Positions 4,259 to 63,521 of a DNA stretch of 64,000 nt are shown here, in pieces. Each line of letters starts with the position of its first letter. Within the stretch, counting starts at the first letter, position 1. Where the stretch lies: positions 24,948 through 88,947 of the forward strand of contig CANRDY010000001.1 in the NCBI GenBank assembly GCA_947629515.1. The letters run 5' to 3'. The position numbers and the translations under genes are program-made. The DNA comes from an uncultured Clostridia bacterium. GTDB taxonomy: Bacteria > Bacillota > Clostridia > Christensenellales > Borkfalkiaceae. Below the pieces are notes generated by a model. It did no database searches and was not told the DNA's origin. It was given only the letters and a program-made list of their open reading frames with translations.

Positions 4259-5681
4259 TCTTTTTGAGCCTCACTTTTTGCTTGCTTTTTAACACCTCGG
4301 GGCGGTTTTTGAGGGTGTAGAGATTGGCTTTTACCATGCCGTCCTTTAAGTCGCCCGCTATCGCGGGGGCGAAGGGCGCAAGCAGCGGAACGCCATAGGA
4401 CTGTTCGGTGACGAGATAACTTATTAAAAATACGGTAAAGACCGCGACCCCGAACGGACCTATACTGCCCGCTATTATGAGGTATATCCACCTTAAAGTA
4501 GCCGTCGTTTCGACGAGGTCGGGGACGGTATAAAGGCATATTGCCGAAAAGGCAACAATTATTATCGCGGGCGTGGAGATTATTCCCGCCTTTACGGCTG
4601 TATCGCCCAAGACGAGCGCGCCCACTACCGAAAGGGCAAGCCCCACGTACTTGGGCATTCTTATCGAGGCTTCGTTGAGAACTTCGAGCACGAGTAACGT
4701 TAAAAACATTTCGATACTCGGCGAAAGGGGTATTCCCTGCACCGAGCTGGATATTTTAAGCAACAGTCTGAAAGGTATGAGCTGTATCTTGAACAGCTGT
4801 GCCGAGACGTACAGCGCGGGCAGAAATATGCCGATGAGCACGGATATGAAGCGGATAATGCGCAGCGTCGTGGCGCGATAACTGCTTGAATAATAGTCCT
4901 CGCCCGTCTGAAAGTCCTCGACTATCATGTAGGGAACGGTGAGGGCGATGGGCGAGCCGTCGACGAGTATCCCCACTCTTCCCTCGGAGATCTTGGAACA
5001 GAAGATGTCGGGTTTTTCGCTTGTGGCGCACCTTTTGAACACCGAGCGCGGGCGGGAAGATACGAACGCCGATATATACGATGAATCGGGCACGACGTCT
5101 ATCTGCGTGCTCTCGATCTCCTTTTGGAGTATTTCGGGCAGACCCTTTCGGCAAACGCCGTCGATATATACAATGGCGACGGTGGTCTGGGAACGCTTGC
5201 CGCATTTGAGGGTTTTTATCTGCAATTTGTCGCTCTTTATGCGCTTGCGCACAAGCCCCATATTGGTCTTTATTTCCTCGACGAACCCCTCGCGCGGTCC
5301 TTTGACGGCTATCTGCGTGGGCGGCTCGGCAATGGCGCGGGCGGGCGGTTTTTTAAGACCTATTATAAAAAAGTCGCGCTCGCCGCCAACGAACAGCACG
5401 GCGTTGCCGTCGGATATTTCCTCTATGGCGTCGGGTATCGACGAGCAGTCCTTTACCTCGGGGGAAGCCAAAAGCCGCCTTACGGTGTGAATGTCGTCGG
5501 CTTTTTTTACGGTGCGCAGGGGCTTGACTACAAGCTCGCCCAAAAGGGCTTTGTCGGCAATGCCGTCGGCATATATCGCGGCGAATTCCTTGCCGCCCTC
5601 CGAGACGAACTCGAACACGAGCACGTCCTCGGAGACGAGCACGTCCTTTACCGACTTTATTTGCTTTTGAAGTGAATCCAT
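4245..5681 (-). CDS. spore germination protein, GerA (GerAA/KA) family
   Basis: 478 aa. Conserved GerA core EPPTQIAVKGPREGFVEEIKTNMGLVRKRI and TTVAIVYIDG, plus C-terminal membrane block. First gene of the operon. Confidence 0.85.
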   Translation of the reverse strand: MDSLQKQIKSVKDVLVSEDVLVFEFVSEGGKEFAAIYADGIADKALLGELVVKPLRTVKKADDIHTVRRLLASPEVKDCSSIPDAIEEISDGNAVLFVGGERDFFIIGLKKPPARAIAEPPTQIAVKGPREGFVEEIKTNMGLVRKRIKSDKLQIKTLKCGKRSQTTVAIVYIDGVCRKGLPEILQKEIESTQIDVVPDSSYISAFVSSRPRSVFKRCATSEKPDIFCSKISEGRVGILVDGSPIALTVPYMIVEDFQTGEDYYSSSYRATTLRIIRFISVLIGIFLPALYVSAQLFKIQLIPFRLLLKISSSVQGIPLSPSIEMFLTLLVLEVLNEASIRMPKYVGLALSVVGALVLGDTAVKAGIISTPAIIIVAFSAICLYTVPDLVETTATLRWIYLIIAGSIGPFGVAVFTVFLISYLVTEQSYGVPLLAPFAPAIAGDLKDGMVKANLYTLKNRPEVLKSKQKVRLKKNVES

Positions 5682-5777
5682 AAAAATATTATCGGTAACT
5701 TTTTACAAAATATCCATGGGGGGAGGGTTGGGGGGCGGCGGGAGCGCGCACGAGACAATAAACAAGCGGTTTTTTTG

Positions 5778-6050
5778 TTCGCGTTTCAAAGGGCAAGCAC
5801 AGACCACCTTGGGATTATCTCGGTCAATCTGCCGTTTCCCGCAAGCGGGAACCCTCGGCAGAGCGTCGGGCTACGCCCTCGCGCGAACCCGCTTCGCGGG
5901 CTTCTCATAGCGTTCGAAATGACAGTGCCTTATGTTGCGCCGATAATATGCGCGCGGGCGTTCCAACGCCCGCGCGCGAACAGTGCCTTAATGCGCTCCG
6001 ATAATATTTAAAATAGCGGCGGGCGGCAAAATGCCGCCCGCCGCACGCAC
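5778..6050 (+). repeat. composite repeat: C (long variant), I hairpin, duplicated C-tip, I hairpin
   Basis: CGTTTCAAAGGGCAAGCACAGACCAC...GAAATGACAGTGCCTTATGTTGCGCCGATAATAT. Hairpin 5950-5977 GCGCGCGGGCG/CGCCCGCGCGC. Second copy of the C tip at 5980-6012. Hairpin 6016-6044 GCGGCGGGCGGC/GCCGCCCGCCGC. Confidence 0.85.
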
Positions 6051-6060
6051 ACACAACAAC

Positions 6061-6155
6061 TTTTTTGCGTGAGCAAAAAAATTTCACTTGCGCGTAGCGC
6101 AAATTTCACTCGCACGCAGTGCGAATTTCACTTTTGCCGCAAGGCAAAATTACCT
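6061..6155 (-). repeat. A array (inverted orientation): 4 hairpins separated by GTGAAAT; begins 2 nt after the stop of gene 6156-6833
   Basis: Plus strand reads TTTTTTGCgtgaGCAAAAAA ATTTCAC TTGCGCgtaGCGCAA ATTTCAC TCGCACgcaGTGCGA ATTTCAC TTTTGCCgcaaGGCAAAA. Confidence 0.9.
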
Positions 6156-6833
6156 CTACTCCCTTTGCAAGAACGCTTTACAAAAAAGCTCTTCGTTTAC
6201 CTCGCCCGCAAGCACGCTCTGCACGGCTTTTACGCCCAGCTCCACCGCCTCTTCCAATACGCCCGCAAACAGCGAAAAGTCGTATTCGCACCTGTATGTC
6301 TGCCGCTTTGTGCGGTAAAGATAGCGCGTGTAGTCGAAGTGCCGCTTTAAGCACCTCTCCACGCCCGTCAGCGTGACGGTGGGAACGACCTGCTTTATGC
6401 TGTCGTACACCGCCCCCGTACATGCAAGCACCATGTCGCGCGGAAGGATCGTTCTGCGGGTCCTGTAAAATTTGCTTGCGTAAAGCCCCACGTCGCTCTC
6501 GAATTTCTGATGGGCGAAGAGCATGCGCTTACCCTCTTCAAAGGCATATACTATGGGGTGAATCGTGCTGTCGAGCGCGTAGTGCGTTGCCCAGCCCGCA
6601 AGGTAGCACTTGTTGCCCGAGAGCAGTTTTTTGAAGAGTTCGTCGGCTTTTTGCGCGTGCAGCTCCCGCCCCAAATTGGCGCGCGAGAGCTTCATGTTAT
6701 AGGCAAAGAACACGTCGCCCCCCTGCGCGCCGAGAATGTACAGCGCGCGCGAGGTTATCAGCTTTCTCGAATTACCGCCGATCTGCTCGTAAATGCGGTC
6801 GGCGGCTATTGTGTGGGTGAAATAATCGGGCAT
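6156..6833 (-). CDS. zinc-dependent phospholipase C-like family protein
   Basis: 225 aa. MPDYFTHTIAADRIY... N-terminus and GAQGGDVFFAYN block resemble the Firmicute Zn_dep_PLPC-domain hypothetical proteins. Assigned from memory of the family only. Confidence 0.5.
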   Translation of the reverse strand: MPDYFTHTIAADRIYEQIGGNSRKLITSRALYILGAQGGDVFFAYNMKLSRANLGRELHAQKADELFKKLLSGNKCYLAGWATHYALDSTIHPIVYAFEEGKRMLFAHQKFESDVGLYASKFYRTRRTILPRDMVLACTGAVYDSIKQVVPTVTLTGVERCLKRHFDYTRYLYRTKRQTYRCEYDFSLFAGVLEEAVELGVKAVQSVLAGEVNEELFCKAFLQRE

Positions 6834-8034: not shown

Positions 8035-8835
8035 TCACACAATTTTCTCGTACAGGGTTTTGGTCTGCAACAGAGCGCAGAGTTCGTCCTCGGTTATTTC
8101 GTCGAGGAATTTGTCGTCGGACGAGTATATCTGCAACACAAGATAGCGCGAGGCGTCCATGTAACGCAAGGCGTCGCGGAATGTGGCGTCCTCGCTCAAA
8201 ATGACGTACCGCACTTCCCTGCCCCTCTTCTTTTTGCGCGCGGCAAAGTCGATTCGCCTTGCGGGCGGGGGCGGCGAAAACGCCGAACACAGCAACATTA
8301 CCGCCGCCGCCAAAAGACTTAAATTGTGATATACCGTAAAGAAAAGGGCTACTATTACCGCAACCAGCGCAACGTTGACCCCGCGGAGAATGAGGTTTAC
8401 CGTTCGGGGCTTTAAGCACTTCAACAGAGCGCACCGAGCTACCCTGCCGCCGTCGAGGGGATAGGCGGGCAAAAGGTTCAGAACAAGCATACCCGCGTTT
8501 GCGTAGAACAAGAGGTCGGTGTAGGCGTACACCTGCGGCACGAACCACCAAAGCCCCGCAACGGCGACGCATATAAGAAAGTTTACCAAAGGTCCCGACA
8601 GCGCAAGGCGTATTTCGTCGGCGGGGGATATGCCGTCCAGCTCGCACACTGCCGCCGCGCCGTATGGCATAAGCCGCACGCGGGTACATTCGAACCCCAG
8701 CTTTTCGGCGCAAAATATATGACCGCACTCGTGCAGAAGTGCGGTCAACGCGCATATTATGAACACCGTAAATCCGCCGAACAGCGCAGTGAACAGACCG
8801 ACCGCGAGAAAGAGCGGATGTATGGATATTTTCAC
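8035..8835 (-). CDS. spoIVFB: site-2 (M50) intramembrane metalloprotease, SpoIVFB-like
   Basis: HECGH zinc motif in TM helix, NLLPAYPLDGGR motif, C-terminal CBS-like region. Follows a SpoIVFA-like gene with a 4-nt overlap. Confidence 0.8.
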   Translation of the reverse strand: MKISIHPLFLAVGLFTALFGGFTVFIICALTALLHECGHIFCAEKLGFECTRVRLMPYGAAAVCELDGISPADEIRLALSGPLVNFLICVAVAGLWWFVPQVYAYTDLLFYANAGMLVLNLLPAYPLDGGRVARCALLKCLKPRTVNLILRGVNVALVAVIVALFFTVYHNLSLLAAAVMLLCSAFSPPPPARRIDFAARKKKRGREVRYVILSEDATFRDALRYMDASRYLVLQIYSSDDKFLDEITEDELCALLQTKTLYEKIV

Positions 8836-15004: not shown

Positions 15005-15156
15005 GCGGGGGCGCGTTTGCGCCCCCGCGGCAAGCGTTCCGCTTGAGCGGCGTGTCGCAAGCGTTTCGCTTGATCAAGTGTCTTAACAGCGTGAAAGTAA
15101 AACAGCGGAAAGGCTGTTCAACGGGAAGCGGCGGGCGGCATTTTGCCGCCCCCGCG
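15005..15156 (+). repeat. repeat modules I, B (with internal duplication), I
   Basis: GCGGGGGCGC/GCGCCCCCGC hairpin. CAAGCGTTCCGCTTGAGCGGCGTGTCGCAAGCGTTTCGCTTGATCAAGTGTCTTAACAGCG...GGCTGTTCAAC. GCGGCGGGCGGCATTTTGCCGCCCCCGC. Confidence 0.85.
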
Positions 15157-15264
15157 GTGAAATTTTTTTGCTTGCGCAAAAAAGTGAAATTCGCACTGCG
15201 TGCGAGTGAAATTTGCGGCGTTCCGCCGCAAGTGAAATTTTTTACCTACGGTAAAAAGTTATGG
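15157..15264 (+). repeat. A array: 4 x (GTGAAAT + perfect hairpin), closed by GTTATGG
   Basis: GTGAAAT TTTTTTGCttgcGCAAAAAA GTGAAAT TCGCACtgcGTGCGA GTGAAAT TTGCGGCGttcCGCCGCAA GTGAAAT TTTTTACCtacGGTAAAAA GTTATGG. Confidence 0.9.
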
Positions 15265-15862
15265 TAAACGTTTCTTTTAATCAAGTATCTTAACGGCGGA
15301 GAAATAAGCGAGCGTTTAGGCTGTTCAACTTGAACAACCCCCACCTTTAATTCCTCCCCCTTGTAATTTCTACGTCCTCATTCCCTCCCCTTTTTCAAGG
15401 GAGAGGGTAGGGTAGGGGTAGCGTGAGCACGCGGGGAGCAAAGAACAAACGGCTTTTGGTTCGCGTTTCAAAGTGCAAGCACAGACCACGGGGGGATTCT
15501 CTCACTCAATCCCGCGCCTACGGCGCGTGTCATATCCCTCGAAATGACAGTGCCTTATGTTGCTCCGATATTATTTAAAATTGCTCCCCCCTCTTAAATT
15601 CTCCCCCCTCGCAAGCGAAGGGGGAGGGTTGGGTATGGGGAAGTGCGCGAAGGAGCGCGAATATTTTTTCCTTATTCCCTCCCCCTTGGTAAGGGGGAGG
15701 AATTGAAGGTGGGGGTTGCAATTACGAAGTAAAAAAGTCCGAAGAAGCAAGCAAGACAAGGCGAACGAGCGACGACCGCAGCGAGTGTACAATGAAGTAC
15801 ACGAACAAGGCGGAGCGACGTTCAACACAGTATTGCGTAGCTTATTCGGGCTTTGCGGGAGC
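15265..15862 (+). repeat. composite repeat: degenerate B, E, C (15460-15580), E, E, F; right end abuts desulfurase stop codon
   Basis: Module sequences match copies at 56868-56955, 30611-30805, 1236-1291 and 63222-63375. Confidence 0.9.
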
Positions 15863-20892: not shown

Positions 20893-21036
20893 CAAAAAAG
20901 TTGCGCCGTACCGCCGCAAGGGAAGGGGAGCGAATGGGGCAGGGTATGCGCGCGGGCGACTTTGCAAGAACGAAGTGCCTTATGTCGCTCCGATATTATT
21001 GGAAAGCGCGCGGGCGTTGAAACGCCCGCGCGCATA
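20893..21036 (+). repeat. fragments of modules A, E, C-tip and I in the divergent spacer upstream of veg
   Basis: AAAAGTTGCGCCGTACCGCCGCAAG; GGAAGGGGAGCGAATGGGG; AGTGCCTTATGTCGCTCCGATATTATTGGAAAG; hairpin GCGCGCGGGCGTTGAAACGCCCGCGCGC. Confidence 0.75.
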
Positions 21037-21066: not shown

Positions 21067-21312
21067 ATGATAAAGGTAAATCTGACTATAAATACCATAA
21101 AGCAAAGGATAGCCTCGCTTATGGGCGCAAACGTGATCGTTAAACTCAACCTCGGCAGAAATAAGTTCGTGACTTTTCCCGCCACGCTCAACGGGATATA
21201 TCCGTCGCTGTTCACCGTAAGCCCCGACGACAAAAACTTTTTGGGAAAGACCGCGTATTCGTACTCCGAAATTTTATGCGGCAGAGTTAAAATTCAAAAA
21301 GCCGAAGCGTAA
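21067..21312 (+). CDS. veg: Veg protein (DUF1021)
   Basis: Internal ATG of track ORF 20854-21312. MIKVNLTINTIKQRIASLMGANVIVKLNLGRNKFVTFPATLNGIYPSLFTV...YSYSEIL aligns along its length with B. subtilis Veg. Confidence 0.85.
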   Translation: MIKVNLTINTIKQRIASLMGANVIVKLNLGRNKFVTFPATLNGIYPSLFTVSPDDKNFLGKTAYSYSEILCGRVKIQKAEA

Positions 21313-21327
21313 ACGCTTCGGCTTTTT
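21301..21327 (+). terminator. intrinsic terminator of veg
   Basis: GCCGAAGCG taaa CGCTTCGGC followed by TTTTT; the stop codon lies in the loop. Confidence 0.85.
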
Positions 21328-21352
21328 CAGTGGAATGGTTTGGGGGGGGTAA

Positions 21353-21632
21353 AAGTGCCATAAGGTGCTCCGATAGCATTTAAAAATACTCCCCCCTCTT
21401 CAATTCTCCCCCCTCGCAAGCGAAGGGGGAGGGTTGGGTATGGGGAGTGCGCGAAAGGGGTAGTTAAATGCGCTCGGTTGCCCTTGCCAGAACGAAGTTA
21501 GAAAGTTCGAAGAAGCAAGTTATGCAAGGAAAGCGAGGAAAACCCGAAGGAGTTTACTATAAGGTAAATGACTGAGGGTTGCCGCAGCTTGACACAGCAG
21601 AACGACGCATATACGAAGTTTAACGGGAGCTA
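21353..21632 (+). repeat. composite repeat: C-tip, E, F, G; last nt shared with stop codon of 21630-22142
   Basis: AGTGCCATAAGGTGCTCCGATAGCATTTAAAAA; CTCCCCCCTCGCAAGCGAAGGGGGAGGG; F unit; GCATATACGAAGTTTAACGGGAGC-TA. Confidence 0.9.
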
Positions 21633-25385: not shown

Positions 25386-26050
25386 GCGTTCCGCTTGAGC
25401 GGCGTGTCGCCGCGGACGGGCGTCTTAACGACGGGGAAGTAAGACGGCGGAAAGGCTGTTCAACGGGAAGCGGCGGGGCGCGTTTGCGCCCCGCCGCATT
25501 TTTAAATAATAACTGTCACCCTGAGCAAGCGAAGCGCGTCGAACGGGTCTATTCCGCAGTATAGCGGAGCTTTTTATAAGGTGAATATTATTTGGAAGTG
25601 TTAACGCGTTTCAAAGTGCAAGCACAGACCACCTTGGGATTATCTCACTCAATCCCGCGCCTACGGCGCGTGTCATGTCGTTCGAAATGACAGTGCCATA
25701 ATGCGCTCCGATATTATTTGGAAGTCCTACCCCCACCCTGCCCTCCCCCTCCAAATGGAAGGGGAGGAATGGGCGATTGTTAGGTTGCTGTACGAAGTGA
25801 GAAACTTTGGAGGCGAGCGGGGATTTCTCAAAACAGCGGACACCCGCTGTTTTGCCCCGCGAGGTGAGCTTGCGCATAGTGCAAGGCGCAAGCGGTGACC
25901 GAGAACGGCGTTTTTCCTTGCGCCGTTCGAGAAGCGAGCAGAACGAGGAGCGCGAGCAGTTTGCGAGGGAGCTTACAATGACGTAAGTGACCGAGCAAAA
26001 GCGGAGCGCGACAATGTTATGCGAAGCATATACGAAGTTTAACGGTAGCC
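25386..26050 (+). repeat. composite repeat: B, I, D (25505-25570), C (25604-25724), E variant, F with nested H (25813-25933), G
   Basis: Each module matches the copies listed in the summary key. Ends 4 nt before the stop of 26055-27365. Confidence 0.9.
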
Positions 26051-30520: not shown

Positions 30521-31061
30521 ACATTGAAATTTTTTTGCGAGAATTGTGAAATTTTTGCGCGGGTGCGGGGGAAAGGGACGGGACGCTTACTCAATAGCTT
30601 ATTTTTTGATACCGTTTCAAAGTGCAAGCACGGACCACCTTGGGATTCTCTCGGTCAATCCCGCGCCTACGGCGCGTGTCATATCCCTCGAAATGACAGT
30701 GCCATAATAAGCTCCGATAATATTTGAAATGCTCCCCCCTCTTTAATTCTCCCCCCTCGCAAGCGAAGGGGGGAGGGTTGGGTATGGGGAAGTGCGCGAA
30801 GGGGGAGTTTAGGGCGTTCGGTCGTCCTTGCAATTACGAAGTGAGAAACTTTGTAGATGCGAGCAGAACGAGGAGCGCGAGCAGTTTGCGAGGAAGCGTA
30901 CACAGAAGTACGTAACCGAGCAAAAGCGGAGCGCGACACAGCTTTATGTTGAACAGCCTATCCGCCGTATTACCTCAACGCTGTTAAGACACTTGGTCAA
31001 GCGGAACGCTTGCGAAGCATATACGAAGTTTTCGGGAGTATACGAAGTTTAACGGGAGCTA
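30521..31061 (+). repeat. composite repeat: A fragment, C (30611-30729), E, F, inverted B, G x2; last nt shared with stop of 31059-32033
   Basis: Modules as in the key. Terminal sequence GCATATACGAAGTTTTCGGGAGTATACGAAGTTTAACGGGAGC-TA. Confidence 0.9.
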
Positions 31062-32084: not shown

Positions 32085-32262
32085 ACAAGCGTTCCGTAAG
32101 CGTTCCGCTTAATCAATGGGCGGCGTGTCGCCGCGGACGGGATTCTTAACGGCGTTAAGATAGACAGCGTGTCGGCTGTTCAACAAGCGTTCCGCTTGAC
32201 CATGTGTCTTAACGGCGAGGAAGCAATACGGCGGATCGGCTGTTCAACTTAAATTTTAAGTG
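32085..32262 (+). repeat. module B, about 2.5 tandem copies
   Basis: CAAGCGTTCCGTAAGCGTTCCGCTTAATC...GGCTGTTCAAC CAAGCGTTCCGCTTGACCATGTGTCTTAACGGCG...GGCTGTTCAAC. Confidence 0.85.
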
Positions 32263-32329: not shown

Positions 32330-32358
32330 TTGACAAACGAAAAACAATGTCGTAAAAT
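32330..32358 (+). promoter_or_regulatory. consensus sigma-A promoter of small RNA 1
   Basis: TTGACA - 17 nt - TAAAAT. Confidence 0.65.
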
Positions 32359-32364
32359 AAAATC

Positions 32365-32446
32365 ACAAAGGGGAACCCAAAGCGGTTGACCTCGACAAGT
32401 TTAAAAAATAACCGTCAAGCTATCAACTATCGGCGGTTATTTTTTT
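32365..32446 (+). ncRNA. predicted ~80-nt non-coding RNA, 3' end antisense to small ORF 1
   Basis: Runs from the predicted TSS (~7 nt after the -10) to the bidirectional terminator. No ATG in the transcript. Paralogous to 35668-35757. Confidence 0.4.
32403..32446. terminator. bidirectional intrinsic terminator shared by small RNA 1 and small ORF 1
   Basis: AAAAAATAACCG ... CGGTTATTTTTTT: A-run/T-run-flanked stem usable on both strands. Confidence 0.65.
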
Positions 32447-32544
32447 ACGCGCTTAATCGCTATGTACTCGACTTCGTCGAGCAACAGCTCAAGCTGTTTA
32501 AGGAGCTCGCAGAGTTGCGATACTAATTCGCTAAACTCGGTCAT
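32437..32544 (-). CDS. small ORF 1, 35 aa (MTEFSELVSQLCELLKQLELLLDEVEYIAIKRVKK)
   Basis: AAAGGAGGTG SD 8 nt upstream of ATG 32544. Stop codon lies inside the terminator stem. Paralogue at 35748-35852. The track lists a longer 97-aa frame that reads through repeat H. Confidence 0.45.
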   Translation of the reverse strand: MTEFSELVSQLCELLKQLELLLDEVEYIAIKRVKK

Positions 32545-32599
32545 AAGCCTCACCTCCTTTGAAAGAAAATGTTTTACTCCATTTTCCCCCTCGAGAGGT

Positions 32600-32704
32600 C
32601 TTCTCGCGCGGCGTAAGGAGCAACGCCGCGCTCGGTCACCGCTTGCGCATTGCACTATGCGCAAGCTCATCTTACACAAGAAAACAGCGGGTGTCCGCTG
32701 TTTT
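32600..32704 (-). repeat. module H (inverted relative to other copies), between promoter and SD of small ORF 1
   Basis: Matches 25833-25933 and 36335-36433 in reverse complement. Contains AAAACAGCGGacacCCGCTGTTTT. Confidence 0.85.
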
Positions 32705-32766
32705 AAGAATTTTGTGTTCGACGCCTGCAAGGATTCCCCCTTGCTTCGAAAATTAATATTAAAATT

Positions 32767-32795
32767 AGTATAAACTTTTTGTAATATTTTGTCAA
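32767..32795 (-). promoter_or_regulatory. consensus sigma-A promoter of small ORF 1
   Basis: Minus strand TTGACA - 17 nt - TATACT. Confidence 0.6.
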
Positions 32796-32875
32796 TAAAA
32801 ATTTTAATTAAATCGCGCGCGGGCGTTTGAGAACGCCCGCGCGCATACAGTACTTAGATATTATTGAGAAAACGC

Positions 32876-35137: not shown

Positions 35138-35581
35138 ATGGATATTTTGTCGAATTTTTCGGAGCGGCTGAACGAATACATGCAGTACGCGAACCTGAAC
35201 AGCGTTGCGCTTTCGGAAAAACTCGGGGTTGCGCGTTCGACCGTTTCGGAACTTGCGCGCGGCAAGTTTCTGCCGACCTACTCCACTTTCTGCAAGATAA
35301 TCGAATATTTTTCATGCTCGGCGGACTACATTTTGGGCTTGTCGGACGACCCCAAAGAAAACGCCGTTTTCTGGGAAATTCAACCCTTTGCAACCGCTTT
35401 GCGCGAAGCGTTGTCGCGCTTCGGCAAGTCGCAATACGAGCTTGAAAAGGAACAGAGCATTTCGGGTTCTATCGTGTACGATTGGCTTTTCAACGGCGCG
35501 TTGCCGTCCATTCCGAACCTCTGCAAGGTCGCCCGCTTTTTCGACTGCACGATCGACTTCCTTTTGGGAAGAGAAAAGTAA
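35138..35581 (+). CDS. transcriptional regulator with two tandem XRE-type HTH domains
   Basis: 147 aa with two HTH_3-like units (LNSVALSEKLGVARSTVSELARGK...YILGL and ...ISGSIVYDWLFNGALPSIPNLCKVARFFDCTIDFLLGR). Confidence 0.7.
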   Translation: MDILSNFSERLNEYMQYANLNSVALSEKLGVARSTVSELARGKFLPTYSTFCKIIEYFSCSADYILGLSDDPKENAVFWEIQPFATALREALSRFGKSQYELEKEQSISGSIVYDWLFNGALPSIPNLCKVARFFDCTIDFLLGREK

Positions 35582-35632
35582 GGCGGCGGGCGTTGATACG
35601 CCCGCCGCACAATAAAAAATTTCGCAATATGC

Positions 35633-35661
35633 TTGACAAACGGAAAGCAATGTCGTAAAAT
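35633..35661 (+). promoter_or_regulatory. consensus sigma-A promoter of small RNA 2
   Basis: TTGACA - 17 nt - TAAAAT; near-identical to 32330-32358. Confidence 0.65.
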
Positions 35662-35667
35662 AAAATC

Positions 35668-35757
35668 ACAACAAGGGCTTGCCCTAAACGGTCAGCCCCG
35701 TCGGCTAATTAAAAAATAACTGCCTTCCGCGACTAAACTTTGGGCGGTTATTTTTTT
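35668..35757 (+). ncRNA. predicted ~90-nt non-coding RNA, 3' end antisense to small ORF 2
   Basis: From the predicted TSS to the bidirectional terminator, with no ATG. The first ~25 nt resemble both small RNA 1 and the 5' UTR of small ORF 2. Confidence 0.4.
35711..35757. terminator. bidirectional intrinsic terminator shared by small RNA 2 and small ORF 2
   Basis: AAAAAATAACTGCC ... GGCGGTTATTTTTTT. Confidence 0.65.
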
Positions 35758-35852
35758 ATTGTCAAAAAGATTTTATCTTTTGTGACGCGGACGACCTCTA
35801 TGTACCCCTCGTCGAGTAAACTCAACAAAAAGGTTATAAGCTCGATCCTCAT
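35748..35852 (-). CDS. small ORF 2, 34 aa (MRIELITFLLSLLDEGYIEVVRVTKDKIFLTIKK)
   Basis: Hand translation (below the ORF-track length cut-off). AAAGGGGGTG SD 8-9 nt upstream of ATG 35852. Stop lies inside the terminator stem. Shares the LLDE..YI...(R)V.K pattern with small ORF 1. Confidence 0.45.
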   Translation of the reverse strand: MRIELITFLLSLLDEGYIEVVRVTKDKIFLTIKK

Positions 35853-35918
35853 AAAAATTTCACCCCCTTTACGGGGCATGATTAACCGCCTTCGGGAAAC
35901 CCTTGTTGCTTGGATTTT

Positions 35919-35947
35919 ATTTTAGTATTATTGTTTTAATTTGTCAA
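35919..35947 (-). promoter_or_regulatory. consensus sigma-A promoter of small ORF 2
   Basis: Minus strand TTGACA - 17 nt - TAAAAT. Confidence 0.65.
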
Positions 35948-35966
35948 GAGGTTTTTTTATTGAAGT

Positions 35967-36631
35967 GCGCGCGGGCGTTTGAGAACGCCTGCGCGCGTAT
36001 ATTATGTTGTATTACATTATTATTTAAATATGAGTTCGCGTTTCAAAGTGCAAGCACGAACCACGGGGTCGAGTGCGGCGGTGTTCCTTACGCCGCGCGA
36101 GAAATTCTCTCGCTCAATCCCGCGCCTACGGCGCGCGTCATATCCCTCGAAATGACAGTGCCTTAATGCGCTCCGATAATATTTGAAAATGCTCCCCCCT
36201 CTTTAATTCTCCCCCCTCGCAAGCGAAGGGGGAGGGTTGGGTATGGGTAGGGCGCGAATGGGGAGTTTAGTGCGCTTGATTACCATTGCAATTACGAAGT
36301 GAGAAAGTTCGAAGGCGAGCGGGGATTTCTCAAAACAGCGGACACCCGCTGTTTTGCCCCGCGAGGTGAGCTTGCGCATAGTGCAAGGCGCAAGCGGTGA
36401 CCGAGCGCGGCGTTGCTCCTTACGCCGCGCGAGAAGCAAGCAAGACAAGGCGAACGAGCGACGACCGCAGGGAGTGTACAATGAAGTAAATGACTGAGCA
36501 AAAACGTAAGCGCGACACTGCTTTATGTTGAACAGCCTATCCGCCGTATTACTTCCCCGCTGTTAAGACACTTGGTCAAGCGGAACGCTTGCGACGCATA
36601 TACGAAGTTTACGGGCTTTGCGGTAGCTTAT
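35967..36631 (+). repeat. composite repeat: I, C (36036-36190, carrying a partial H hairpin at 36070-36103), E, F with nested H (36315-36433), inverted B, G; ends 4 nt before alaS stop
   Basis: Modules as in the key. Confidence 0.9.
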
Positions 36632-44939: not shown

Positions 44940-45216
44940 TTCGAGGGCTTTGCCCGACCCCTCGCCAAAGGCGAGACCGAAGCAAGCAAACTTCTAATAA
45001 TAACTGTCACCCTGAGCAAGCGAAGCGCGTCGAACGGGTCTATTCCGCAGCATAACGGGGTTTTTGTAAGGTGAATATTATTTGGAAGTGATAGCGCGTT
45101 TCAAAGTGCCCCGAGCAGACCACGGGGGGATTCTCTCACTCAATCCCGCGCCTTTGGCGCGTGTCATATCGTTCGAAATGACAGTGCCTTAATGTGCTCC
45201 GATATTATTTGGAAGT
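44940..45216 (+). repeat. composite repeat: D-like, D (44996-45060), C (45094-45216); C tip supplies the stop codon of 45205-45966
   Basis: AACTGTCACCCTGAGCAAGCGAAGCGCGTCGAACGGGTC; CGTTTCAAAGTGCCCCGAGCAGACCAC...CCGATATTATTTGGAAGT. Confidence 0.9.
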
Positions 45217-45966
45217 TTCTTCGGGTTCTTCGGAAGATAAAGTTTCGGGGGCGGGGGTCGAAAGCGATTGGGAGTAGTTTTCGAGGTGCTCCTTTAAGGT
45301 GAACTCCGACTTGAACGGAGCGAAAAAGCTCGCACGCTTTGCGCCCGATTGCTCTATCTTTTCCTTTGCCTTTTCTTTGAGCTTTTCGAACGATACAACT
45401 ATGCTGTGCTCTTTGGCAAAACTGCGGATCTTTGCGGTGAGGTTCAGAGAGTGCGCGAGGTCGACTATGAAGAACCCCGAGAACAGCCCGATTATGTAGG
45501 CAAATTCTATGTTTTCGACGAACCATATTACCGCGTCTATGGCGTACGGGCGTATTACAAAGTAGAAAAACGCGCCGACGAGCGTCCACAAAAATGAGAA
45601 CAGCGGGCAGATTATTCCCTGTATGTTGCCCCAACGGTTGGTGTAGTCCCACAGCTTTATCTTCATTCCCTTTATAAAGATAAGCCCCGCTATGTACTCG
45701 ATGAGCGTCATGAACGCGCCCATGATCAAAATTATCAGAATGGCGTCGACCCACGGATAGCCCGTGTATATTGGAATGAACGAGACGGCAAACAGCCCCA
45801 CTATCCCGAAGCCGTATAACGGCAGATAGGGTCCCGTCAAAAAGCCGGGGTTTATCCACTTTTTGGCGGTGAAAAATCTGCGGAAGAGCACTTCCGTCAC
45901 CCAGCCCAGCATACTGCCCGTTATAAACAGAAAACACGCTACCAAAAACGCCGTATATACCTGCAT
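45205..45966 (-). CDS. polytopic membrane protein (resembles DUF1113 / putative ABC-transporter type IV family)
   Basis: Trimmed to MQVYTAFLVACFLFITGSMLGWVTEVLFRR. 253 aa with 6-7 TM helices. Family assignment is from memory only. Confidence 0.55.
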   Translation of the reverse strand: MQVYTAFLVACFLFITGSMLGWVTEVLFRRFFTAKKWINPGFLTGPYLPLYGFGIVGLFAVSFIPIYTGYPWVDAILIILIMGAFMTLIEYIAGLIFIKGMKIKLWDYTNRWGNIQGIICPLFSFLWTLVGAFFYFVIRPYAIDAVIWFVENIEFAYIIGLFSGFFIVDLAHSLNLTAKIRSFAKEHSIVVSFEKLKEKAKEKIEQSGAKRASFFAPFKSEFTLKEHLENYSQSLSTPAPETLSSEEPEETSK

Positions 45967-51900: not shown

Positions 51901-51949
51901 GTCCACCAACGCCCCGCGACGCTTTATGCGTCGCGGGGCGTTGGTGGAC
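51901..51949 (-). terminator. 22-bp perfect hairpin following and including the tmRNA 3' end
   Basis: Minus strand GTCCACCAACGCCCCGCGACGC ataa GCGTCGCGGGGCGTTGGTGGAC. Confidence 0.7.
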
Positions 51950-52324
51950 GAGTCGGGACTTGCACCCGAGTCTTGACGGTGTCGTCGGAGCTTTCTACAT
52001 ACTTATTCCGCCTTTGGCTTGACCGCGCTTCCCGACGGACGGGGCGGGCGCGGGGCAGACCGCAAAAAATTTTGCACGGGCGCGCGCGGTCGGACGCGCG
52101 CTGTGCTATCCGTTAAGATGACGCTCTGCGCCGTCAACGGAATACGGCGCAAAACGGACCGCTTTAAGTTAAGCGGCGAGCGCGCAGCTTGCAGCTCTGT
52201 ACGAGGGGAAAGCTACGACTTTTTCGCTTTTATCTGCGTTTGAATTTAGTTTCCGTTTTTACAAAGCCGAGCCTTTGGTATGCTTTTCTCCTTCTCTTCC
52301 GCCAATCGAATCTGAAACTCGCCC
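51942..52324 (-). ncRNA. ssrA: tmRNA (ssrA), ~383 nt
   Basis: Minus strand 5' GGGCGAGUUUCAGAUUCGAUUGG... and 3' ...UCGGGUGCAAGUCCCGACUCGUCCACCA. The 7-bp acceptor stem GGGCGAG/CUCGUCC has a G3.U70 pair, followed by discriminator A and encoded CCA. Internal tag frame GCA GAU ... GCG CUC GCC GCU UAA (52237-52169) ends ...ALAA-stop. Confidence 0.8.
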
Positions 52325-56686: not shown

Positions 56687-56840
56687 GTTTTTGCTAACGC
56701 AAAAGTGAAATTTTTTTGCGTAAGCAAAAAAGTGAAATTTGCGGCGTGCCGCCGCAAGTGAAATTTGCACTTCGTGCAAGTGAAATTTTTGCCTTACGGC
56801 AAAAGTGAAATTTTTTGCGCTATCGCGCAAAAAGTTGTGG
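56683..56840 (+). repeat. A array, largest copy: 7 hairpins; first linker GTGAGTT contains the TGA stop of apgM; closed by GTTGTGG
   Basis: Stems TTTTGC, TTTTTTGC, TTGCGGCG, TTGCAC, TTTTGCC and TTTTTGCGC, each with a perfect complement. Loops taac/gtaa/tgc/ttc/ttac/tatc. GTGAAAT linkers at 56705, 56732, 56758, 56780 and 56805. Confidence 0.9.
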
Positions 56841-62888: not shown

Positions 62889-63098
62889 TAAACGTTCCGT
62901 TTAATCAAGTGTCTTAACGGCGTTGAGGGAAAACGGCGGAGCGGCTGTTCAACGCGAGCAAGCGTTCCGCTTGACCATGCGTCTTAACAGCGTTGAGGGA
63001 AAACGGCGGAACGGCTGTTCAACGCGAGCAAGCGTTCCGCTTGACCATGCGTCTTAACGGCGTTGAGGGAAAACGGCGGAGTGGCTGTTCAACGCGAG
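62889..63098 (+). repeat. module B, three tandem copies with exact 70-nt period
   Basis: Units at 62889-62958, 62959-63028 and 63029-63098. The last two differ at only 3-4 positions. Confidence 0.9.
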
Positions 63099-63521
63099 AG
63101 GTGACCCCCTCCCTTGTGTTCCCTCCCCCTGTTCTTCCTTCCATTCCCTCCCCTTCCGCCTCGGAGGGGGAGGGCGAGGGTAGGGGTAGCGGGAGTGCGC
63201 GAATGGGGAGTTTAGGGTGCTCGGTCGTCCTTGCAATTACGAAGTGAGAAAGTTCGAAGAAGCAAGCAAGACAAGGCGAACGAGCGACGACCGAAGCGAG
63301 TGTACAATGAAGTACACGAACAAGGCGGAGCGACGTTCAACACAGTATTGCGTAGCTTATTCGAGCTTTGCGGAAGCTGTACGAAGTGAGAAACTTTGTA
63401 GATGCGAGTTATGCAAGGAGCGCGCGGATTTTGCGAAAGGAGCTTACAATGACGTAAGTGACTGAGCAAAAACGCAAACGCGACACCGCAGAACGAAGCA
63501 TATACGAAGTTTGCGGCAGTA
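63099..63521 (+). repeat. composite repeat: E (long), F, second F variant, G; right end abuts clpP stop codon
   Basis: CCCTCCCCTTCCGCCTCGGAGGGGGAGGG. F at 63222-63375 matches 15712-15862. F at 63376-63490 matches 50355-50480. GCATATACGAAGTTTGCGGCAGTA. Confidence 0.9.

Follow-up and report, generated by a model that had tools for sequence, protein, structure and literature searches.

What is encoded by two convergent promoters that enclose one terminator and a 35-codon open reading frame (ORF), and through which contact would the small RNA (sRNA) of such a module govern the opposing message? The question is raised by a module, here termed copy 1, at positions 32330-32845 of a 64,000-nucleotide stretch from an uncultured Clostridia bacterium (GenBank assembly GCA_947629515.1, contig CANRDY010000001.1; this whole stretch is hereafter the window). 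A sequence-only reading had taken copy 1 for the diverged duplicate of a second module in the window (copy 2) and for a small addiction-type or regulatory module whose sRNA carries a candidate anti-Shine-Dalgarno stretch that changes in step with the Shine-Dalgarno (SD) sequence of its target. We consider it probable that copy 1 is an antisense-controlled mini-protein cassette that acts through a terminator duplex, and its architecture, as far as sequence can tell, resembles that of a chromosomal type I toxin-antitoxin (TA) locus.

Reading of the sequence, pairwise alignment, and a promoter and terminator scan recovered all of the sequence features proposed for copy 1, namely, the plus-strand promoter, the ATG-free RNA, the terminator, the 35-codon ORF with its SD, and the minus-strand promoter (Table 1). 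In the minimum free energy (MFE) fold, the sRNA consists of a two-tier 5' stem-loop (32369-32392), a linker, and the terminator hairpin, whose 14-bp stem (32404-32417 / 32433-32446) closes a variable 15-nt loop (32418-32432); the scan covered loops of 3 to 8 nt, so this hairpin is absent from its list. The last two Lys codons and the TAA of the ORF sit within the terminator stem, such that the KK codons, read on the opposite strand, supply the T-run of the sRNA terminator.

The proposed duplication with divergence is well founded. The sRNA promoter region is nearly identical to 35633-35675 (42 to 45 nt with 2 mismatches, much as had been claimed), a 24-mer spanning the -10 box and the sRNA start has exactly two occurrences in the window, and the core GCGCGCGGGCGTTTGAGAACGCC of the GC-rich hairpin recurs identically at 35967-35989 (0 expected by chance). 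The two peptides share 13 invariant columns, and the DNA of their conserved core is alignable. On these alignments, copy 1 is a true paralog of copy 2, duplicated and diverged, and the copies are not fragments of a larger known element. The identical-loop hairpin noted beyond the minus-strand promoter is present in both copies but is not specific to the module, as it belongs to a palindrome family with five members in the window; outside the mRNA promoter, it is a possible insulator or terminator.

A profile of both window peptides retrieved 13 small proteins that fall into two types, a 35-aa type A, like that of copy 1 (consensus M.EL.EL.S.LCELLKQLELLLDEVEYIAIKR.KK), and a 34-aa type B, like that of copy 2 (MRIELI.FLL.LLDEGYI..VRVTKDKIFLTIKK). 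The contigs of these proteins, from related metagenome-assembled genomes, yielded eight more distinct modules, or 10 with both window copies. The eight occupy unrelated intergenic sites (5'-nucleotidase gene, pyr operon, spoIIE/purA, holB/tmk, rpoC, and several very large surface-protein genes), and three derive from samples that also yielded the window strain; copy 1 is one of at least five paralogs in its source organism. A SpoIIE gene in one related metagenome-assembled genome suggests that the host is a Firmicute able to form spores. All 10 modules have an sRNA promoter of the form TTGACAAA-N-TAxAAT, an sRNA of 81 to 95 nt, an invariant terminator right arm (GGCGGTTATTTTTTT) with the ORF ending KK-TAA inside the stem, an SD of the form AAAGG(A/G)GGUG, a leader of 59 to 98 nt, and an mRNA promoter TTGACA-17-TAxxxT. 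A GC-rich hairpin lies outside the mRNA promoter in most modules, though not all, and its sequence differs among them.

Some of these loci have further features of their own. Locus L021 holds a tandem pair of type B modules with a 372-bp period (5623-6183), and L017 holds three type A-like modules within 2.7 kb (6001-6193, 6359-6546, and 8677-8766), one with an intermediate peptide, MSDFFDLMMLIALLSEMLERFDIEYIAIKRNKK. Five of the eight non-window module loci (L013, L017/L018, L021, L022, and L026) directly adjoin very large genes (902 to 2454 aa), which may be coincidence; the large product at L017/L018 carries LRR/Flg_new-type repeats. Loci L023 and L024 share an identical type A ORF and sRNA and differ in sequence outward from the mRNA -35 region, as well as in their neighboring genes, a contrast suggestive of a recombination or rearrangement event at the edge of the module. 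Only four Campylobacter contigs (L001-L004) matched the 21-mer AATGTCGTAAAATAAAATCAC in a scan of genome contigs; they were taken as unrelated AT-rich matches, without their loci being read.

Cofolding of full-length cognate pairs predicts one intermolecular helix only, a 44- to 47-bp terminator duplex spanning the last codons and the stop, with a net free-energy change (ddG) of -40 to -49 kcal/mol. The ddG of cognate pairs averaged -45.5 kcal/mol (range, -52.5 to -39.6), compared with -11.8 kcal/mol (range, -28.9 to -1.8) for non-cognate pairs, and cross-pairing of copies 1 and 2 gave only -6.1 and -7.7 kcal/mol. Because the partners are stable hairpins with the same stems, the net gain upon duplex formation comes almost wholly from the loop. 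Identity within each type is 100% in the terminator right arm, 80 to 87% in the left arm, 76 to 84% in the ORF, 57 to 60% in the terminator loop, and 44 to 61% in the linker. The variable 15- to 19-nt loop is thus predicted to be an address label that renders the paralogs orthogonal. With 44 to 47 nt of perfect complementarity between the two predicted RNAs, the module has the cis-encoded, pairing sRNA that defines the antisense partner of a type I TA system.

The ORFs of all modules end in a run of seven A's (A AAA AAA UAA; 32440-32448 in copy 1), a slippery heptamer located in the terminator stem. A terminating ribosome would need to melt the stem with which the sRNA pairs, and translation could in this way be linked to sRNA access. 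Frameshifting by -1 on this run ahead of the stop was considered and rejected because the hairpin begins within the slippery run, which makes the spacing wrong.

A different contact had been proposed, in which TGACCTC at 32387-32393 serves as a free anti-SD that changes in step with the SD. RNAalifold on the ten sRNAs returns a two-tier 5' stem-loop (outer stem GGG/CC(U/C), inner stem ACC/GGU) followed by the linker and the terminator, and the supposed anti-SD is not free but paired within this covarying stem. Double-sided changes occur at all six of its pairs, and 85 to 96% of cells are paired in an alignment of 50 distinct sRNAs that was itself fitted to the covariance model; none of 500 shuffles reached the observed score, and slid controls fell to 42 to 65% paired. 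The difference between CCU (type A) and CCC (type B) is balanced within the stem, where the opposing 5' strand has A and G, respectively (column pair 8/35 is A-U in 4 sequences and G-C in 6). Across the ten modules and four relatives, the SD variants do not track the sRNA variants: SD GGGGGUGA co-occurs with sRNA GACCUC (L014 and L022), GCUCC (L017 and L025), and GCCCC (type B), and SD GGAGG co-occurs with CCUC (copy 1) and CUCC (the second L017 module). When the sRNA 5' domain was paired by RNAduplex with the last 75 nt of the leader plus the ORF start, cognate duplexes were no better than non-cognate ones, and their energies showed no excess pairing over shuffles (z of -1.7 to +1.0). The check on further copies, set beforehand, therefore found no correlated sRNA/SD change in the ten modules, and the claim of change in step has to be abandoned, although the module as such stands.

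The SD is paired in cis in the MFE fold of all 10 mRNA leaders; its partner in type A is a CCUC-type element that lies upstream, beyond an internal hairpin, and in type B the pairing is direct (CCCC-GUAAA-GGGG). This SD-sequestering leader structure is the counterpart of the 5' stem-loop (5'-SL) of par RNA I (PMC7472228). The 5' end motif of type B, ACAACAAGGG, which is present in both sRNA and leader, pairs with codons 6 to 10 in four of five type B MFE folds; the pairing is not general to type A, is not significant compared with shuffles, and is only a lead.

Pairwise Nei-Gojobori ratios of nonsynonymous to synonymous substitution (dN/dS) are 0.09 to 0.39 in both types, with dS up to ~1 to 1.8, and the copy 1 ORF gives 0.14 to 0.28 relative to its paralogs. 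An exhaustive hidden Markov model (HMM) search of 1.84 billion cluster representatives matched 38 proteins at an E value of <=1e-3, nearly all of which are of type A, measure 35 aa, and end in an almost invariant IEYIAIKRxKK. Judged by its substitution pattern, the ORF is a protein-coding gene under purifying selection, and this selection together with the 38-member peptide family leads us to reject the view of a fortuitous ORF in a repeat. The ORF also has the properties of the small ORF of a type I TA locus, i.e., fewer than 60 aa, its own promoter and SD (promoters, 11/12), and selection at the protein level.

Type A peptides have a grand average of hydropathy (GRAVY) of ~0, a maximum 15-residue hydropathy of 0.8 to 1.15, and a longest uncharged run of 4 to 6 residues; type B is intermediate in hydropathy, and the hydrophobic relatives described below reach 2.1 to 3.3 (15-residue maximum). 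The helical hydrophobic moment of type A (1.35 to 1.74) is near that of delta-toxin and unlike that of the hydrophobic relatives, and AlphaFold2 (AF2) models a single helix over residues 2 to 34 (pLDDT of 93); as modeled, type A is an amphipathic, coiled-coil-like helix and not a transmembrane one. The AF2 model of type B has a helix (residues 2 to 14) and a beta-hairpin (18 to 23 and 28 to 32; pLDDT of 90). Foldseek gave no match to this model below an E value of 1, and its nonsignificant list holds mostly the recognition-helix/wing part of winged-helix proteins, a likeness that is only a hint. The window peptides matched nothing in Pfam or NCBIfam at an E value of <=10 and nothing significant among PDB sequences, and the sources searched give them neither a family name nor an annotation. 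The 35-aa peptide is probably the effector of the cassette; that it is a toxin is predicted only, and tentatively, at somewhat less than an even chance. A candidate conserved upstream mini-ORF in the type A leader (AUG after GAGGGGGAAA) was discarded, since neither its frame nor its length is conserved between copies.

The 5' domain of the sRNA is homologous, in the same sense, to the mRNA leader, and the module as a whole is an imperfect inverted repeat in which two promoter-plus-5'-domain units, with ~80-nt arms, flank the ORF and terminator. In type A, sRNA AAAGGGGAACCCAAAGCGGUUGACCUC has its twin in leader ...GGCGGUUGACCUC, and in type B, sRNA ACAACAAGGG...ACGGUCAGCCCCGU has its twin in leader GCAACAAGGG...GGCGGUUAAUCAUGCCCCGU. 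Among 39 modules (the window family and its relatives), the similarity of the sRNA to its own leader reaches a z of >=4 in 24, and the sRNA's own leader takes first place among the 39 in 15 modules and a top-three place in 25 (~1 first place expected by chance). By these rankings, the twinning is concerted evolution, and either selection for a common target or gene conversion between the nearby inverted repeats may lie behind it; the 5' stem-loop of the sRNA may protect the 5' end, act in trans as a copy of the cis repressor, or offer a shared binding site.

A scan with the terminator pattern AATARYYGYC-N12-22-GGCGGTTATTTTTTT extends the family to at least 120 metagenome stretches and 19 viral contigs, the source-labelled metagenome contigs being mostly from human gut. 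An SD and an 18- to 60-aa ORF in the KK-stop frame are present in 93 of the 140 matches listed; 87 of these 93 are strongly hydrophobic, and 45 distinct peptides are represented (e.g., MTETVLLVILLVALAEVIKNIKK, MDIIEMVVTLLIIVSLIELVKNIKK, and MVTYSDLFEFVIMLIAFATFIYKISKKK). The sRNA covariance model scores 40 to 60 bits on many of these loci beside KK-stop ORFs and ~19 to 25 bits on terminator-only matches. The loci have convergent promoters, the same sRNA/leader twinning, and a shared motif, ACGGUUAGCCCC, which is exactly the sequence of module B_L013. Unlike the terminator, none of these features was selected for by the scan pattern. Pfam Hol_Tox matches 5 of 35 of these relatives (best E value, 3e-6), and a PHROG holin matches 2. 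There are also intermediates: L074, L117, and the viral L150 resemble type B, with N termini that are more hydrophobic, and the second L017 module joins a hydrophobic N terminus to a type A C terminus. From these shared parts, we conclude that the window modules belong to a large family found in gut Firmicutes and in the phages of these bacteria, within which they form a divergent branch. Combined, the sRNA covariance model and the placement of the KK-stop within a conserved terminator stem make a searchable signature, which has delivered more than 90 candidate loci, and the same regulatory scaffold carries peptides that are clearly not membrane toxins.

We propose that two strong convergent sigma-A-type promoters would produce an ~82-nt sRNA and an ~240-nt mRNA (~360 nt in copy 1, with its insertion), both ending at one bidirectional terminator, and that SD sequestration in cis by the leader would keep basal translation low. 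Docking of the sRNA on the 3' end of the mRNA would begin with loop-loop kissing between the complementary terminator hairpins (a first step suggested by analogy with par); the 15- to 19-nt loop would supply nearly all of the net pairing energy, such that each paralog recognizes only its own partner. The kissing complex would then zip into a 44- to 47-bp duplex over the stop codon, a putative RNase III substrate through which the mRNA would be degraded and/or its translation blocked, as in bsrG/SR4, txpA/RatA, or par.

Several observations weigh against this scheme. The sRNA and the mRNA are predicted solely from promoters and terminators, a stable hairpin locks each partner, and the overlap of 44 to 47 nt is shorter than in the Bacillus systems. 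The leader of copy 1 is disrupted, the loci are surrounded by housekeeping genes (rpsI/rplM, cysS, and alaS-like) and are not on an obvious mobile element, and the conservation of the terminator in the wider family exists by construction, as those loci were collected by the terminator pattern. The window peptides are also not the small hydrophobic transmembrane toxins of type I systems, for which reason we do not class the locus as a proven TA system. The term addiction module, as used in the sequence-only reading, is apt for the type I TA architecture but not for a toxin, a label that is unproven for peptides that are not hydrophobic and whose loci lie amid housekeeping genes.

The rival accounts differ in which part of the module they hold responsible. 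The mechanism first suggested, in which a single-stranded UGACCUC of the sRNA pairs with the co-evolving cognate SD, like par RNA II at DRa/DRb or SprA1AS, now appears quite unlikely. A 4- to 6-bp anti-SD:SD match is possible in nearly all modules, and 5' contact at the translation start region is what blocks translation in par-type systems (PMC7472228), but the GGGGG SD occurs with CCUC, CUCC, and CCCC, the energies of cognate duplexes are no better than those of others or of shuffles, the stretch is held in the covarying stem of the sRNA, the MFE dimer contains no 5' contact, and the mRNA already has the same motif in cis, paired with its SD. Alternatively, the sRNA 5' domain could act as a leader mimic, either as a decoy that competes for a leader-binding factor (protein, RNase, or ribosome) or as a copy of the cis repressor acting in trans on the G-rich pseudo-SD/SD, with terminator pairing merely bringing the domain close. 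The likeness of sRNAs to their own leaders and the structural conservation of the 5' stem-loop argue for such a role; however, gene conversion of close inverted repeats would give the same pattern without function, the partner factor is hypothetical, and copy 1 has lost most of its leader twin to an insertion while its ORF is still intact, and we regard this account as unlikely. That the module is a nonfunctional dispersed repeat, similar to miniature inverted-repeat transposable elements (MITEs) or repetitive extragenic palindromes (REPs), with a fortuitous ORF and promoters and with hairpins that terminate flanking genes, is hardly credible: the genome is packed with modular intergenic repeats, the GC-rich hairpin belongs to a palindrome family, and the module is an imperfect inverted repeat, but the low dN/dS with many synonymous changes, the dozens of diverged peptide family members of fixed length, the retention of promoters, SD, and stop position in all copies, and the covarying RNA stem are all at odds with it.

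Another account retains the cassette and removes the toxin, such that a nontoxic small regulatory or structural protein would be tuned by a cis-antisense RNA, as has been suggested for YhzE, a multicopy family in Bacillus (PMC2887945). The peptides are of a soluble type (an amphipathic helix in type A and, with all Foldseek matches above an E value of 1, a winged-helix-like half in type B), the conserved IEYIAIKRxKK suggests a specific partner, and the context is that of a core chromosome; against this, the RNA chassis is common to loci with classical hydrophobic, partly Hol-Tox-like peptides, and amphipathic helices can be membrane active too. We hold this account possible, though well short of an even chance. 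A more speculative and rather unlikely extension is that a general chassis of gut Clostridia and their phages (promoter, 5' stem-loop leader, cis-sequestered SD, KK-stop ORF in a bidirectional terminator, and convergent twin sRNA) has been re-used, in the lineage to which the window belongs, for non-membrane mini-proteins (the 35-aa coiled-coil-like helix and the 34-aa helix plus beta-hairpin), with cognate recognition by a hypervariable terminator loop only and with leader mimicry (a trans repressor copy or decoy), not start-site antisense, as the effector step; if true, this would be a new logic for type I systems. Type I TA loci are difficult to detect and have scarcely been mapped in gut Clostridia other than C. 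difficile, and the modules suggest two design principles, paralog insulation by a variable terminator loop and an antitoxin RNA that mimics the leader of its toxin. Should the peptides be toxic without a transmembrane segment, they would represent a new class of type I effector, and should they not be toxic, an example of antisense-controlled mini-proteins.

The insertion in copy 1 lies between the GGCG and GACCUC of its leader, matches a dispersed repeat at 36327-36436 in reverse complement (91% over 110 nt), and is found in no other type A copy. Through this insertion, the leader counterpart of the sRNA domain is broken in two and the leader acquires three hairpins, one of which (32681-32704), AAAACAGCGG-ACAC-CCGCUGUUUU followed by CUUGUGU in the mRNA sense, is intrinsic-terminator-like. 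This sequence suggests that the copy 1 ORF may be attenuated or silenced by a terminator-bearing repeat; the insertion leaves intact both promoters, the cis anti-SD, and the ORF with its SD. The dispersed repeat itself measures ~110 to 170 nt with three GC-rich hairpins, occurs three times in the window (in inverted orientation in the copy 1 leader), and has in the hairpin at 32681-32704 a bidirectional terminator-like element.

The intergenic regions of the window are a mosaic of at least 60 direct-repeat families, many of them modular and recurring in the same order, and the load of MITE/REP-like elements is unusually high. The palindrome family GCGGGCG-loop-CGCCCGC has five members (0.02 expected), among them the identical-loop hairpin of the modules and the element that terminates the XRE gene at 35138-35581. 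Rfam at gathering thresholds found nothing on the module and, in the window, only the transfer-messenger RNA (tmRNA) and two Gut-1 RNAs (RF01706), both just over the gathering score; the first Gut-1 copy has a member of the 70-nt repeat family D2 on either side, and this family also occurs just upstream of copy 1 and as a tandem array of three units. Contigs L010 and L011, of the same strain, diverge from the window near 36263, just past copy 2 and within the repeat mosaic, through either strain-level rearrangement or assembly breaks at repeats. Exact-protein look-ups of neighboring genes yielded only near-identical contigs of the same strain, and blastn of copy 2 gave no match in cultured phage or plasmid collections.

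Table 1. Positions of the elements of copies 1 and 2 and of repeats and RNA genes in the window
Feature	Position	Strand	Basis or remark
sRNA promoter, copy 1, TTGACA-17-TAAAAT	32330-32358	+	Promoter scan 11/12; kept in 10/10 modules
Antisense sRNA, copy 1, ~82 nt	32365-32446	+	Transcription start site inferred; covariance model R1, 82.9 bits, E 9e-14
TGACCTC, proposed anti-SD	32387-32393	+	3' strand of sRNA 5' stem-loop; motif also in mRNA leader
Bidirectional terminator, copy 1	32404-32446	both	A-run and T-run flanks; only sRNA-mRNA complementarity, 44 bp
35-aa ORF MTEFSELVSQLCELLKQLELLLDEVEYIAIKRVKK, type A, stop included	32437-32544	-	ORF list, homologs, dN/dS
SD AAAGGAGGTGA / AAAGGAGGUGA of copy 1 ORF	32550-32560	-	Reading; paired with leader GACCUCUC in MFE fold
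Cis anti-SD GACCUCUC of copy 1 leader, remnant of leader motif GGCGGUUGACCUC	32593-32600	-	Same-sense twin of sRNA motif
121-nt repeat insertion in copy 1 leader	32601-32721		Leader alignment with A_L014 and A_L026
mRNA leader 5' end, hairpin GCAAGG-GGGAAU-CCUUGC	32722-32760	-	Leader alignment, MFE fold
mRNA promoter, copy 1, TTGACA-17-TATACT	32767-32795	-	Promoter scan; equivalent in 10/10 modules
GC-rich hairpin outside copy 1 mRNA promoter	32814-32845		Palindrome-family member
Copy 2, type B, paralog of copy 1	35633-35998		Covariance model, 94.7 bits
Copy 2 sRNA promoter	35633-35661
Copy 2 sRNA	35668-35757
Copy 2 34-aa ORF	35748-35852	-
Copy 2 SD	35860-35870
Copy 2 cis anti-SD	35872-35877
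Copy 2 mRNA promoter	35919-35947
Copy 2 GC-rich hairpin	35965-35998
Dispersed repeat, other copies	36293-36459, 25791-25957
Palindrome family, five sites	5954-5973, 6019-6041, 21010-21029, 32819-32840, 35586-35605
Direct-repeat families, examples	15496-15639, 21301-21444, 25639-25782, 30645-30788, 36104-36247, 45130-45273
Gut-1 RNA, two copies	15155-15243, 56730-56816	+	RF01706
Repeat D2, flanking first Gut-1 copy	15059-15128, 15266-15335
Repeat D2, upstream of copy 1	32185-32254
Repeat D2, 3-unit tandem array	62890-63099
tmRNA gene	51942-52324	-	RF00023, 106.7 bits

Compared with MITE/REP elements, the module shows coding constraint, and its ~80-nt inverted arms are two promoter-leader units; no target duplications were seen on reading the module flanks, although this was not a systematic test. 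The module resembles bsrG/SR4, txpA/RatA, bsrE/SR5, and yonT/SR6 of Bacillus subtilis in its convergent genes overlapping at their 3' ends, a presumed duplex-dependent decay, a partly sequestered SD in the toxin mRNA, and Lys-rich C termini. In these 3'-overlapping systems of Bacillus, the overlap exceeds 100 nt and the sRNA measures 100 to 220 nt, whereas the overlap in the module is only the 44- to 47-nt terminator and its sRNA is ~82 nt. The Rfam model of BsrG (RF01412) scores 21.4 bits on the copy 2 mRNA (E value, 0.038), far below its gathering score of 55; apart from this, Rfam at an E value of <=10 gave only noise on the module, the sRNA being absent from Rfam 15, and Hol_Tox (PF16935) had 0 matches to the window peptides at an E value of <=10.

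The type I TA modules of Clostridioides difficile (CD2517.1-RCd8, CD0956.2-RCd10, and others) are similar in their clostridial hosts, convergent overlapping genes, multiple paralogs, neutralization by the cognate antitoxin only (in their case), presence in prophages, and 30- to 56-aa peptides with a Lys-rich C terminus (PMC6563280). Their toxins differ in having a hydrophobic N-terminal transmembrane domain, with no sequence similarity detected to the window peptides, and neither a KK-stop in the terminator nor a leader-twin sRNA is described for them in that review (PMC6563280).

By analogy, the closest architecture to that of copy 1 is the par (RNA I/Fst - RNA II) system of Enterococcus faecalis pAD1 and its Fst/Ldr kin. 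There are differences: the module is without the DRa/DRb-type direct repeats that give 5' complementarity at the start, and because its 5' regions are inverted repeats, sRNA and leader carry the same, not complementary, sequence. The window peptides are without a transmembrane helix, the conserved Trp, and PXXXG (type A has no Trp, Pro, or Gly motif of the Fst signature), and no Fst family of Pfam or NCBIfam matched them at an E value of <=10. What is held in common is the layout itself, with convergent promoters, a short sRNA and an ~230-nt mRNA, and one shared bidirectional intrinsic terminator, as well as complementary terminator loops as the likely site of initiation, an intramolecular 5' structure that hides the SD (here predicted), a peptide of ~33 to 35 aa with a charged C terminus, and paralogs that coexist without predicted cross-talk (PMC7472228).

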